Part shown: one piece after another, positions 5,874 to 13,295 of the stretch
How the letters are laid out: every line of letters starts with the position of its first letter
Numbering within the stretch: the first letter of the stretch is position 1
IMG/VR virus record: IMGVR_UViG_2675903650_000016
Length of the DNA: 17,907 nt
Reading direction: 5' to 3' (one strand)
From: a virus
Taxonomy: Duplodnaviria; Heunggongvirae; Uroviricota; Caudoviricetes
Notes under the pieces: model-generated
Told to the model about the DNA's origin: nothing
What the model saw: the letters and a program-made list of their open reading frames with translations, nothing else
Database searches by the model: none
Translations under genes and position numbers: made by a program

Positions 5874-5894
5874 AAAAAAACCGCCTCAGCGGTT
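5874..5894 (-). terminator. terminator-like hairpin plus U-run between T and tape measure gene
   Basis: Minus strand reads AACCGC-TGAG-GCGGTT followed by TTTTTTT, then a GGAGAAAGG Shine-Dalgarno and the H start. Function as terminator, attenuator or RNA-stability element is not established. Confidence 0.4.
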
Positions 5895-5902
5895 CTCATC
5901 AT

Positions 5903-6582
5903 TCATGACTGTGCTGCAAAGCTCAGCGCGTCTTCCAGCGCCGCAAACGGATCCACCTCCGGCTTATCCTCATCCTCGCCCCAGCAGAGCATGGCGTCCT
6001 TCAGTGCAACATTCATCCCCTGTGCCCCAAAAACCGCTTTCACGATCTGTGCATTACGGATATCCCCGCGCTCATCACCCAGCGGGGATACCCTGTCGAA
6101 CTCCATCCACATCATCGCCTCGCTCGCACTCAGGCTGTGCCGCAGTTCGGATAAGGTGCGCCCCAGACGGAGCGCAAGTCGCATCAGAAAGCGAATTTCC
6201 GGGCGGGCTACTTTTTTCTGGCCGACTCTGCATCAGCGATCAGTTCCAGTGCCTGACGCAGCAACCGGGCATGTACCGGACCATAGACGGCCAGCACCTG
6301 CTCACGGTCGTCCGGAGTGAACACCCGCTGCAGATCCGTATCACACAGGACATCGCAGAACAGCGTCACATCCGCTTCCAGGTTACGGCGGGTTTTCGCC
6401 ACCACCGACAGGGTATCGTCATCCTCTCCATCACCATTGAGCACTTCCTGCCACAGATACCAGGCCTCTGCCGAAGGCTCCCGCAGCACCACGCTGACAT
6501 TACCCCATTCCGGCACCTTCACCGTTTTATGACGAAACCCTGACAGTCTGGCCAGCGCCAGCGTTTTCAGATCCTTTTTCAT
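5903..6582 (-). CDS. tail assembly chaperone G-T fusion made by programmed -1 frameshift
   Basis: G frame and the downstream 93 aa ORF (5903..6184) are offset by exactly -1. The A AAA AAG heptamer lies at the last two sense codons of G. Reading through gives ...ESARKK then VARPEIRFLMRLALRLGR... with no intervening stop. Confidence 0.7.
6208..6582 (-). CDS. tail assembly chaperone G (lambda gpG-like role)
   Basis: 124 aa acidic protein directly downstream of the major tail gene. ATG at 6582 is preceded by AAGGGGA. The gene ends in a slippery heptamer followed by an overlapping -1 frame ORF, the arrangement seen for lambda G/G-T. Assignment rests on position and architecture; I did not recognise sequence similarity to lambda G. 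Confidence 0.75.
   Translation of the reverse strand: MKKDLKTLALARLSGFRHKTVKVPEWGNVSVVLREPSAEAWYLWQEVLNGDGEDDDTLSVVAKTRRNLEADVTLFCDVLCDTDLQRVFTPDDREQVLAVYGPVHARLLRQALELIADAESARKK
6211..6217 (-). other. programmed -1 ribosomal frameshift slippery site (A AAA AAG)
   Basis: Minus-strand heptamer A-AAA-AAG occupies the final two sense codons of G, immediately before its TAG stop. This is the same heptamer used in dnaX. Position and phase match a G-T frameshift. Confidence 0.7.
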
Positions 6583-6596
6583 GATGACCCATCCCC

Positions 6597-7313
6597 TTAT
6601 CCGGCGGCTGCGCTCACTGTCACGGTGCATTCAACAGACGTCACACTCTGTGCTTTCTCTGCCGAATCGGTCACCACGCAGGTATATTTCCCCGCATCAG
6701 CGGACTGCGCACCTGGCTTACTGAAGGTGTCTGTCGTCTGCCCGTCAACCGGCTGACCATCCTTCTTCCAGGCGTATTTATACGGCGGCGTTCCCCCGTT
6801 GGCACTGACTGACATTGTCAGCAGCGCACCGGTATTCACGGTAAGTGTTTTATCCAGATTTTTCACAAACGCCAGCGGTACCACAAAGGACACCGGTTTG
6901 CCTTTCAGACGCAGTGAAAACGTTGCTGCCACCACGCCGTTGGTACCGGATGACCAGGTGTGCTGACGCACTTCCGCCAGGAACTTAAAGCCCTTACCGG
7001 ACGGAAACAGCACCTTAAACGCATACAACGCGTCATTGTCATAGGCATCACGCAGGGCGTTCTGGGCCTGATTCAGATAAAAATTACCCGACATGGAAAT
7101 CTCGGACGACGCCCCCAGACCGTTGATGTTCTCCTGCTCTGTGGAGCAGAGCGTGGTCACATCAATATCCTGTTTCTGACCGGCGGTGAACTGGACTTCC
7201 TTGATGGTGCAGTCCAGGCGCAGATATTCCGCCTTATCCATAGTTTCAGCAGTCGCCGGGGCAGATGAAATCATCACCTGCGTCAGCTGTGAGCGTTCAT
7301 ACAAAGCAGACAT
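6597..7313 (-). CDS. major tail (tube) protein with C-terminal Ig-like domain
   Basis: 238 aa. It sits between the tail completion gene and G, the position of lambda V, with a strong AGGAGG RBS. The C-terminal ~80 aa (TPPYKYAWKKDGQPVDGQ...AGKYTCVVTD...VECTVTV) has an immunoglobulin-like pattern. I did not recognise direct similarity to lambda gpV, so the family (possibly TP901-1/Phage_tail_2 type) is inferred. Confidence 0.8.
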   Translation of the reverse strand: MSALYERSQLTQVMISSAPATAETMDKAEYLRLDCTIKEVQFTAGQKQDIDVTTLCSTEQENINGLGASSEISMSGNFYLNQAQNALRDAYDNDALYAFKVLFPSGKGFKFLAEVRQHTWSSGTNGVVAATFSLRLKGKPVSFVVPLAFVKNLDKTLTVNTGALLTMSVSANGGTPPYKYAWKKDGQPVDGQTTDTFSKPGAQSADAGKYTCVVTDSAEKAQSVTSVECTVTVSAAAG

Positions 7314-11108: not shown

Positions 11109-11319
11109 TCGCCATGCTCCGCATCACGTTTCTTTTTCTGACCTGCCGGACGTCGCACCGTGATGTACTCCGCCTTCCCCAGGCGAACCAGCACCTCCGC
11201 ACACGGCTGTGCCACATCACGGATATCCCCGGCCCGGGCATCATGCGTGCCCTGCAGATACTGGATTTTTGCCATCAGTTACTGCGGGAAGCTCGCGCCT
11301 CCCGCCCTCCTCATCAGAC

Positions 11320-13257
11320 TCAGCCGCCGGACGCAGTTCCGTAGTTCACACCGGTGATCACCGCCACTGCCGCGGTACGGCGACGACGCCAGTTGATCCA
11401 GCGCTCCGCACGGATGGCCACGCTGCCTGTCTGGAACATGGAAACCAGCTCCACCGGGGACGGCGTGGTACTGTCGCCGGTCGGCTCAGACTGCATTTCC
11501 AGTGATGCCTCGCGGGACATATCCACTGCCACGCCGCCGTCATCCGCCAGATAAATATCCGGGGCATTCACCAGCACCAGCTGGTCACCCACGTACTGGG
11601 AGACAATCACCGGCAGCCCCTGGAAGGAGCCACCCAGCAGGGTCATGTCCGGGTATTCCTTCTGACCCAGCGCATTTTTACGCATGGACAGTGCCAGGGC
11701 ATTGGTGCTGGACATCAGCCAGATCGCACCGGTGGGCTGCAGGTTTGCTGCCACAAACTGTCCAAACGCAGCCTCTGCATCCGCATCCGGGTTACCGGTT
11801 GATGCCGTGCCCTTCACATCATGGGTGATGGACGCCGGGGAGACATCTGCCACTGCGGCTTTTTTCGGGTCCACAAAGTCTGTATCCAGACGCGCCACCA
11901 CCGCTTCCGCCAGCGCATTACGGACCAGTGCATCAGCAGCCGGACTGGAAAAACGGATCAATTCTTCCGTCAGTACCGCAATGGCCGACACTTTCGCATG
12001 ACTGAAGGTGATGGATTCAAAATCAAACTTCGTCAGGGGTTTTGCCTTACCCTCACCCACCCAGCCGGCAGCACCGCCGGACACCTGGGCGTGCACACGG
12101 ATATTGAACGGCACCTGACGAAGTGCAGGGATCCCGCCCTGACCAAATCGCCCGATAATGGTCTGCGGACGCAGGTAATCAATAAAGTCCTGTGCGTATT
12201 CCTGATATTCAGACAGGCTGCCTGCCCACTGCGGATCCGTGGTGGTCCCCGCGCCCACTGCCGATTTCAGGACATGATGCAGACGACTGTCATCCGGATA
12301 CTGACGACGGGCCACTTCCAGGGCTTCAGATCGGACGCCTTTAGCCGCAGCCAGCGATTTGGCAAAGCGGGCGAAGCCAATCCCCTTATCCAGTTTCTGC
12401 TCCACACGGATCACCGGCGCAGAAGCCACCGCGGCCACATTCCCGTTACCGGCCTGTTTCACCGGCTGCGCCGTGGCGGCCTTACCGGCTTCCAGTTCAC
12501 GCAGGCGCTTCAGGTGCGCATCCACCTGACGGATTTCCGCTGCGGTGTTGTCGTAATGCTCTTCCTCCTCCACATCCAGCGTGCGCCCTTCCTCTGCGGC
12601 TTTGGTCATGACCTCCTCAAGGGAGGCTGCCAGCGCTGCACGCTTGTTTTCAAAACTTTTAATCTGTTCGCCAATATTCATTATGGTCTTTTCCTTATGA
12701 AAAACGGTTGTTGACTGTGCCGCAGCGCCGGCAGAAGATGCGATTTTCACCACCGGTTTCCGGTTGCCGGACGCGGCAGAAAACGGGCGGTCGTAAGATT
12801 TAATGGTCCGGATGGTGCATTCCGCATTCGCGGGCACGGTGACGGCAGACACCTCCATCAGTTCCCAGCGCATAAAATGCAGTCCGCCTCCGTCCAGAAA
12901 GGTGTATTCATGGGGACGGAAGCCCACGGACAGCCCCCTGACCAGCCCGGTCTTAATGGCCGCCCAGACCTCATCCAGCCGGGCAGCCAGTTGCGACGGC
13001 ATATCCGGTACGGGCTTCACCAGTGTTGCCGTGATTTCCAGCCCTTCGCTGACCCGGCGCACCGTACACTGCCCCACCGGGCGGGAATGGTCATGCTGCC
13101 AGAGAAACGGGATCGCACTGCCAAACTCCGCGCCCTCCGGCTCCAGGATGTCACCATCCCGATCCGGAGAAGGCGTTGACGCAATCCCGGTGATCACCCG
13201 TTCATCCTCACTGAAGGATTTCACCGTCAGCAGGGAACAGGCCCGTTTAAGAGTCAC
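11320..13257 (-). CDS. fused prohead protease - scaffold-like linker - major capsid protein (HK97 fold)
   Basis: 645 aa. The N-terminal ~170 aa match the HK97 prohead protease signature as recalled (TGIASTPSPDRDGDILEPEGAEF...PFLWQHDHSRPVG...GLSVGF...EVSAVTVPANA). The middle is a charged coiled-coil-like segment. The C-terminal ~380 aa resemble HK97-type capsid protein (GQFVAANLQPTGAIWLMS...QGLPVIVSQ...VDMSREASLEMQ). GTG start at 13257 is preceded by AGGAGG. Confidence 0.8.
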   Translation of the reverse strand: MTLKRACSLLTVKSFSEDERVITGIASTPSPDRDGDILEPEGAEFGSAIPFLWQHDHSRPVGQCTVRRVSEGLEITATLVKPVPDMPSQLAARLDEVWAAIKTGLVRGLSVGFRPHEYTFLDGGGLHFMRWELMEVSAVTVPANAECTIRTIKSYDRPFSAASGNRKPVVKIASSAGAAAQSTTVFHKEKTIMNIGEQIKSFENKRAALAASLEEVMTKAAEEGRTLDVEEEEHYDNTAAEIRQVDAHLKRLRELEAGKAATAQPVKQAGNGNVAAVASAPVIRVEQKLDKGIGFARFAKSLAAAKGVRSEALEVARRQYPDDSRLHHVLKSAVGAGTTTDPQWAGSLSEYQEYAQDFIDYLRPQTIIGRFGQGGIPALRQVPFNIRVHAQVSGGAAGWVGEGKAKPLTKFDFESITFSHAKVSAIAVLTEELIRFSSPAADALVRNALAEAVVARLDTDFVDPKKAAVADVSPASITHDVKGTASTGNPDADAEAAFGQFVAANLQPTGAIWLMSSTNALALSMRKNALGQKEYPDMTLLGGSFQGLPVIVSQYVGDQLVLVNAPDIYLADDGGVAVDMSREASLEMQSEPTGDSTTPSPVELVSMFQTGSVAIRAERWINWRRRRTAAVAVITGVNYGTASGG

Positions 13258-13274
13258 ATCAGCCTCCTGAAAAT

Positions 13275-13295
13275 AAAAAAACCGCCGGAGCGGTT
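13275..13295 (-). terminator. terminator-like hairpin plus U-run between terminase large subunit and capsid gene
   Basis: Minus strand reads AACCGC-TCCG-GCGGTT followed by TTTTTTTATTTT, then AGGAGG and the capsid gene start. The stem is identical to the hairpin at 5874..5894. Confidence 0.4.

Follow-up and report, generated by a model that had tools for sequence, protein, structure and literature searches.

Predicted intrinsic terminators ahead of the capsid, major tail, and tape measure genes in the late operon of a lambdoid Stx-type prophage

Results

We analyzed a 17,907-nucleotide (nt) stretch of tailed-phage DNA (IMG/VR record IMGVR_UViG_2675903650_000016; here called the window) and in particular three hairpins with U-tracts that stand directly upstream of its capsid, major tail, and tape measure genes, which we identify by sequence as predicted intrinsic terminators within a late operon. 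The long open reading frames of the structural region are all on the minus strand, and Pfam matches give the gene order as small and large terminase, a 645-amino-acid (aa) prohead protease-major capsid fusion, and portal, followed by the head-tail connector, head completion, HK97 gp10-like, and tail completion proteins and then by the major tail protein, tail chaperones G and T, a 1080-aa tape measure protein, and the minor tail proteins M and L. The window DNA is 94 to 97% identical to that of many Stx1/Stx2-converting long-tailed phages, its capsid protein is 98.5% identical to the capsid of phage BP-4795, and its tail chaperone is 63% identical to HK97 gp13. In BP-4795, the genes for Q, stx1AB, lysis, an HNH endonuclease, TerS, TerL, and capsid follow in succession on one strand. 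Because of this synteny and identity and the likeness of the chaperone to that of HK97, we assign the window to a lambdoid late operon with an HK97-like tail; as judged from the sequence, it represents the structural module, on the minus strand, of a lambdoid prophage of the long-tailed Stx type. The window itself stops short of Q, and its membership in a Q-controlled late operon is read from the BP-4795 synteny only.

The three elements have a common anatomy, and these and all other window features described below are on the minus strand. Site 1 lies in the 63-nt gap between TerL (stop codon at 13321) and the gene for the protease-capsid fusion. It consists of the hairpin GAACCGC-TCCG-GCGGTTT (13279 to 13296) and a U-tract of T7, A, and T4 (13270 to 13281), in which the first three T's of the T7 run (13281 to 13275) double as the base of the stem; an AGGAGG Shine-Dalgarno sequence (13268 to 13263) and the GTG start codon of the 645-aa fusion (13257 to 13255) follow. 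Site 2 falls in the 66 nt that separate the tail completion gene (stop codon at 7380) from the major tail gene and has the hairpin CCCGC-CGCGT-GCGGG (7336 to 7350), a U-tract of T6 (7330 to 7335) continued by ATTAT, an AGGAGG sequence (7323 to 7318), and the ATG of the major tail protein (7313 to 7311). Site 3 occupies the 47-nt gap between the chaperone T gene (stop codon at 5903) and the tape measure gene, with the hairpin GAACCGC-TGAG-GCGGTTT (5878 to 5895), a T7 tract (5874 to 5880), a GGAG sequence (5867 to 5864), and the ATG of the 1080-aa tape measure protein (5855 to 5853).

At all three sites the stems are 5 to 7 base pairs (bp) and the loops 4 to 5 nt long, the U-tract begins directly 3' of the last G-C pair, and the distance from the end of the stem to the start codon is 21 to 23 nt. 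Each site combines the properties of an intrinsic terminator, namely a stable GC-rich stem, a 3' U-tract, orientation with the genes, and a position between genes. A first-pass annotation of this DNA had singled out the same three elements, and all of them lie where it placed them on the coding strand; the layout that it described (GC-rich hairpin, 6 to 8 T's, Shine-Dalgarno sequence, and start of a structural gene) is seen as T7, T6, and T7 runs, respectively, each followed by a ribosome-binding site and a start codon. It was also right that the other strand carries no T-run, as we found no U-tract on the opposite strand at any of the three sites. The "strong Shine-Dalgarno" that it gave to all three describes the AGGAGG of sites 1 and 2, but site 3 has merely GGAG. 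The free-energy calculation that it proposed as a check gives -10.9, -8.5, and -10.8 kcal/mol for sites 1, 2, and 3, respectively. Compared with shuffled sequence, the site 1 (z = -3.66) and site 3 (z = -2.9) hairpins fold better, while the site 2 hairpin alone does not (z = -1.08).

We scanned the window for compact hairpins of -8 kcal/mol or lower with at least 6 T's in 8 and compared the counts with those in 200 dinucleotide shuffles. This strict scan found five matches on the coding strand against 0.44 ± 0.61 expected, and none of the 200 shuffles reached five; site 2, which scored -7.5 kcal/mol here, narrowly misses the cutoff. A permissive scan was not enriched, with 21 terminator-like sites against 17.1 expected. 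Noncoding sequence makes up 639 of the 14,801 nt of the operon (4.3%), and this small share holds sites 1 to 3, a fourth element at 735 to 718, and the intergenic matches of the scan. The permissive count and the ordinary folding of site 2 are what one would expect if these were chance hairpins in AT-rich intergenic spacers. However, the strict scan and the conservation described below, in which such elements recur at the same junctions of dozens of divergent loci but are found in only 2.5% of random windows, refute this explanation, and we consider it extremely improbable.

Conservation was followed in 80 close relatives from IMG/VR and in a wider sample made up of the window, 29 prophages found with a tail-chaperone profile in one-genome-per-species bacterial assemblies, and 4 GenBank phages. 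In the close relatives, the stems in the spacers are nearly invariant, while loops and T-run lengths vary; at site 3, some have the alternative stem type AACCTGC/GCAGGTT in place of AACCGC/GCGGTT. In the wider sample, we looked for a hairpin and U-tract in the 60 nt ahead of each gene. The major tail gene is preceded by such an element in 29 of 34 loci, with 26 distinct hairpin sequences, and the tape measure gene in 25 of 30, with 19 distinct hairpin sequences, compared with 25 of 1020 random windows (2.5%). Vibrio phage Pm34 and Burkholderia phage phi1026b also have the element ahead of the major tail gene, and loci with a short spacer (PhiR49_2 and Xenorhabdus prophages) lack it. When the site 2 hairpins were aligned (alignment A3), 95% of the cells were paired, four pairs had changed on both sides, and the T columns were nearly invariant; none of 500 shuffles reached the observed covariation score, and slid controls were 31 to 63% paired. 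This pair counting applies to site 2, as the stems before the tape measure gene were too diverse for MAFFT alignment (A4) and were excluded from it. By these comparisons, site 2 is an old element, found in phages of Enterobacterales, Vibrio, and Burkholderia that have tail modules of the HK97 type. We also observed that a 13-nt hairpin core, CGCCGCGTGCGGG, is identical between phi1026b (locus L197, 7255 to 7285) and the window (7336 to 7350), two phages whose tail chaperones are 34% identical.

For site 1, a run of T6 to T8 is present in the region in 77 of 77 related loci. Metagenomic relatives with 73 to 77% capsid identity keep the hairpin and a T6 run, with stems ACCCGC/GCGGGT or GCCCGC/GCGGGT, whereas in a Burkholderia phage, at 39% capsid identity, the TerL and capsid genes have no spacer between them. 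The identical stems of sites 1 and 3 (AACCGC/GCGGTT), to which attention had been drawn earlier, are real but uninformative: the core ACCGC..GCGGT occurs in 13 of 29 hairpins before major tail genes and in 7 of 25 hairpins before tape measure genes of relatives. Since this core is so widespread, in about a third of all hairpins at homologous junctions, the identity has no special meaning, and we rejected it as a sign of duplication. We also rejected the hairpins as recombination or mosaic boundaries, as identity profiles against 14 relatives switch near but not at them, for example approximately 300 nt inside TerL and in the immunoglobulin-like C-terminal domain of the major tail protein. In one of the IMG/VR relatives (L019), an insertion of approximately 2.8 kb, apparently an insertion sequence element, lies approximately 30 nt into the tape measure gene, and this prophage is presumably defective.

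Across 54 junctions, 15 to 24 nt separate the end of the stem from the start codon. Leaders rich in U are known to enhance translation, and a fixed spacing of this sort would be consistent with a translation-initiation module in which the U-tract serves as a U-rich S1-binding enhancer while the hairpin insulates the ribosome-binding site from structures and ribosomes upstream, boosting independent initiation on the capsid and tail tube genes; that AGGAGG precedes the two genes of highest copy number points the same way. We nevertheless judge such a module very improbable, since an S1 enhancer needs no hairpin, genes of low copy number have the same layout ahead of them (the tape measure gene and L in the window; I, J, and stf in HK97 and lambda), and PhiR49_2 and the Xenorhabdus prophages, which lack the element, still express their homologous tail genes.

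The junction that holds site 3 is a slot for inserted genes in related phages. Morons bring their own promoter and terminator, and gene 15, a moron, is between the chaperone and tape measure genes (PMC3594210). We found the slot between T and the tape measure gene occupied in 16 of 30 loci, by genes of low GC content that encode small membrane proteins, zinc-ribbon membrane proteins, or lipoproteins. All 16 occupied slots end in a terminator, and the five loci that have no terminator before the tape measure gene are all moron-less (Fisher one-sided p ~0.014, from loci that are not phylogenetically independent). In two of these five loci, L111 (4646 to 4695) and L113 (4619 to 4668), the hairpin is kept and the U-tract has decayed to TGTATA and TTTATA, respectively, which would be expected if the U-tract were selected only when a moron lies upstream. 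Two loci among the close relatives have a 546-nt lipoprotein-coding insert between the T stop codon and the site 3 hairpin. In addition, the block of site 3 hairpin and ribosome-binding site (AAACCGCTTCGGCGGTTTTTTTACGTCTGGAG) also follows morons in SP-016, L085, L086, and L096, and it is homologous to the post-moron block in Salmonella phage SP-016 and several Enterobacter prophages. On this comparative evidence, site 3 is the predicted terminator that closes the moron slot on its 3' side, at the position of HK97 gene 15, with the slot empty here.

An empty slot with an intact terminator also raises the possibility that the elements are evolutionary relics, either scars of lost morons or vestiges of moron accretion, that are harmless under Q antitermination and functionless now. 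Hairpins of the same types are found whether or not a moron is present, and morons are gained and lost frequently, the porin gene described below being present in only some close relatives, as such an origin would predict. Functionless elements of 15 to 25 nt should decay, however, and site 2 is kept with compensatory changes in Enterobacterales, Vibrio, and Burkholderia phages, site 1 is kept in relatives at 73 to 77% capsid identity, and decay is seen only in the few moron-less tape measure slots (L111 and L113). We therefore regard the relic explanation as quite improbable.

The window also contains an occupied slot. An OmpC-type porin gene (909 to 2072; PF00267, E = 1e-140) with a GC content of 0.43 to 0.44 lies between M and L, behind an AT-rich leader of 206 nt (2073 to 2278). 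At its 3' end is a terminator with the hairpin GGGGCGC-GTCT-GCGCCCC (718 to 735; -15 kcal/mol), T6, and ATGGGCGGATAT, which carries a new ribosome-binding site, and then the ATG (699) of minor tail gene L; this fourth element is 18 nt ahead of the ATG and is stronger than sites 1 to 3. BP-4795 has no gap between M and L, which overlap there in TGATG, and the porin gene is absent from it and from most close relatives. The porin gene is thus a polymorphic moron, and the element at 735 to 718 is its 3' end. This is the only one of the four elements that follows an inserted gene of deviant composition; core genes are upstream of sites 1 to 3, with 8 to 40 nt from stop codon to stem.

The sequence that follows the T-run at the porin/L junction recurs after hairpins at different junctions and in different phages. 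The form T6-8 ATGGGTGAAAT ATG, with the variants ATGGGCGGATATATG and GTGGGGTGAATATG, was found in the window (699 to 717), in L081 (8352 to 8366), before the tape measure gene in L105 to L112, and at lom/stf in lambda (L114). It may be a common 3' cassette of terminator and ribosome-binding site borne by morons, or it may reflect convergence on a Shine-Dalgarno sequence of the GGTGA type.

Site 2 has a weaker tandem partner upstream, the hairpin AGGTCAC-GGT-GTGACTT followed by TTTCTTTTTTT (7377 to 7393; -6.3 kcal/mol). This hairpin overlaps the tail completion stop codon and has T5CT7 downstream (segment 7366 to 7393); it is lineage specific, and the segment and the length of its T-run vary among near-identical relatives. 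With this tandem hairpin (7393 to 7377) and the element before L, the layout is not confined to the three elements first listed.

Directly 3' of the capsid stop codon is a 9-bp GC-rich hairpin without a U-tract (11284 to 11305), which is kept as GGGCGGGG-GAAA-CCCCGCC in the relatives with 73 to 77% capsid identity and could be an mRNA 3' stabilizer for the capsid segment. It resembles the hairpin after gene 5 of HK97. The bracketing of the capsid gene by site 1 on one side and this conserved hairpin (11305 to 11284) on the other, together with hairpins on both sides of the HK97 and lambda capsid genes, suggests a role at the RNA level, in which the elements would act within the antiterminated transcript as barriers to 3' exonucleases or as marks adjacent to RNase E sites in the U-rich tract, dividing a 20-kb mRNA into parts of unequal stability and so setting protein ratios. 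Such a role would also suit the retention of site 2 in very distant phages without a link to morons, including phi1026b, in which no Q was recognized, and the roles of intra-operon terminators have been called unknown (PMC8022706). We consider it rather unlikely all the same. A U-tract is not needed for a stability hairpin, but it varies hardly at all at sites 1 and 2 and decays only in moron-less tape measure slots. The stems are 5 to 9 bp, against approximately 20 bp or more for RNase III, and extended folds contain no long duplex. Protection of the 3' ends of terminase or neck-gene segments has no obvious benefit, and, where the elements are supposed to set differential expression, partial termination is a poor fit for sites 1 and 2, where it would reduce expression of the genes needed in highest copy number (capsid and tail tube).

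A terminator-like hairpin also lies within the reading frame of minor tail gene M (2399 to 2418; -11.8 kcal/mol, followed by TTTTTGTG). It overlies a conserved WHGGYRAFLWKPP motif, is kept in close relatives but not in HK97, and is probably a by-product of the coding sequence.

A scan of the window against Rfam gave no match except one below threshold at site 3, to isrK (RF01394; 5874 to 5941; 27.1 bits against a gathering score of 50). We rejected this match as evidence for a small RNA (sRNA), because it is carried by the terminator stem and U-tract. IsrK, the anti-sRNAs AgvB and AsxR, and the Pas sRNAs come from the Q/PR'/lysis region of prophages and not from structural-gene junctions, and Hfq peaks were not recovered at terminators in the study of Hfq-bound EcOnc sRNAs (Tree et al. 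2014). A Term-seq data set for enterohemorrhagic Escherichia coli (EHEC) Sakai, GSE143631, is cited in PMC7547250.

Discussion

We think it fairly probable that sites 1 to 3 are intra-operon intrinsic terminators that are read through by Q-modified polymerase and that stop unmodified polymerase. RNA polymerase that has been modified by Q resists terminators (PMC6606751, PMC7547250). By these established properties of Q, RNA polymerase that initiates at PR' and is modified by Q would pass sites 1 to 3 during lytic growth. The working substrate of the terminators would instead be polymerase that lacks the Q modification, such as that from moron promoters active in the lysogen, from leakage through tR', or from spurious initiation. 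Transcripts made by such polymerase would be released in the U-tract, 10 to 15 nt ahead of the next ribosome-binding site, and the capsid, tail tube, and tape measure genes would stay silent unless Q is made. Because a terminator breaks translational coupling, each would need a dedicated Shine-Dalgarno sequence directly after it, which would explain the layout that the elements share. Sites 1 and 2 would then be resident terminators that are never beside a moron, and site 3 would be the boundary of the moron slot. Our data favor this action on unmodified polymerase for site 3, through its moron slot, and favor it directly for the porin/L terminator.

The first-pass annotation had placed the elements in a late operon under antitermination, in agreement with the position of the same genes downstream of Q in the near-identical BP-4795. 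It went on to argue that they may therefore have another task (protecting the 3' ends of upstream mRNA segments, marking processing sites, or setting differential expression), which overlooks the standard reading, namely, action on polymerase that is not Q-modified.

Several points weigh against termination of unmodified transcripts as the function of sites 1 to 3. Termination and read-through at these sites are both predictions, from sequence features and from the known properties of Q, respectively. No moron was found in the spacer before the major tail gene (0 of 34 loci) or between TerL and capsid genes (0 of 77), and no promoter-like site was found on the coding strand upstream of sites 1 and 2; because there is neither an adjacent moron nor such a site, the target of these two terminators in a lysogen is conjectural. 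The site 2 hairpin is modest, with five GC pairs, and conservation of the U-tract would be equally expected from a U-rich translational enhancer. Finally, phi1026b keeps the terminator before the major tail gene, and no antiterminator was recognized in its genome with Pfam and PHROGs, while Vibrio phage Pm34 has both terminator and antiterminator.

The last of these points also bears on another view of site 2. Rather than insulating against unmodified polymerase, this terminator, and by analogy site 1, might be an ancient functional part of the late transcript, either a tuned attenuator or a processing or stabilizing element that sets protein ratios. The site 2 terminator is retained in phages as distant as those of Vibrio and Burkholderia, without any link to a moron and even where no antiterminator is recognizable, which argues for this view; we regard it as unlikely. 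If it were true, the ratios of head to tail proteins or of enzymes to structural proteins would be set by a terminator.

As the annotation of terminator-like hairpins in lambdoid late operons goes back to the sequencing of HK97, and lambda shows them too, the significance of finding them here is limited, although a genome paper from 2021 still gave the roles of intra-operon terminators as "not known" (PMC8022706). What our analysis adds is that the terminators before the major tail and tape measure genes are conserved across genera in HK97-like tail modules, that the one before the tape measure gene tracks the moron slot and loses its U-tract only where a moron is absent, and that a hairpin, U-run, and new ribosome-binding site make up the layout that a moron insertion leaves behind, as at the porin/L junction. 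The layout should be useful for prophage annotation and for spotting slots for moron or defense genes, and site 2 offers a simple experimental system for the role of an intra-operon terminator. What keeps these elements of interest is the still unproven role of the conserved terminators that have no tie to morons.

Comparison with known systems

The closest parallels are in HK97 (AF069529.1; Juhala et al. 2000), whose record lists a "putative terminator" at the gp11/gp12 junction, before the major tail gene, and between the gp15 moron gene and gp16, the tape measure gene. Sites 2 and 3 correspond to these features (6692 to 6719 and 8398 to 8422, respectively), which are themselves only predicted in HK97. 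The HK97 record has five further "putative terminator" junctions, and all of them have a hairpin, T-run, Shine-Dalgarno sequence, and ATG. The hairpin before the HK97 major tail gene, AACCCGCC-AGAT-GGCGGGTT, resembles CCCGC-CGCGT-GCGGG in the window, and the gene 15 moron precedes the tape measure terminator in HK97, whereas the same slot is empty in the window. HK97 lacks a counterpart of site 1, as its head module is different from that of the window (TerL, protease-capsid fusion, and portal).

In lambda, the D/E junction has GCCGC-CTGT-GCGGC, T7, and then the ATG of the major capsid gene E, which is analogous to site 1. The same layout is present at I/J and lom/stf, and a hairpin without a U-tract follows E. 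Lambda has no equivalents of sites 2 and 3 because U/V and T/H have no spacer, only a 7-nt gap or an overlap.

The nearest model for the RNA-level roles put forward in the first-pass annotation is phage T7, in which the T-phi terminator and RNase III sites flank gene 10 and shape the ends and stability of the capsid mRNA, with long RNase III duplexes and a terminator after the capsid gene. The window differs in having stems of 5 to 9 bp and in having its U-tract elements ahead of the abundant genes.

A predicted intrinsic terminator within an antiterminated late operon with a single promoter, at a module boundary, has been described for the P22-like phage L, whose authors propose partial termination or stopping of transcription that is not antiterminated and state that the roles "are not known" (PMC8022706). 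The second of these proposals agrees with the reading that we favor. Phage L belongs to a short-tailed group and has neither sequence nor positional homology with the window.

Terminators at moron boundaries are known from HK97 gene 15 and lambda lom (PMC3594210), and site 3 lies at the junction of chaperone and tape measure genes that holds the first-named moron, HK97 gene 15. The porin/L terminator of the window is a textbook moron boundary case, whereas neither a moron gene nor a promoter precedes sites 1 to 3 in this DNA. An analogous insulator terminator is known from Tn916 (PMC11658703). Taken by sequence and position, the three elements are of a known kind, predicted intra-operon intrinsic terminators of lambdoid late operons, two of which are already annotated in their HK97 homologues.

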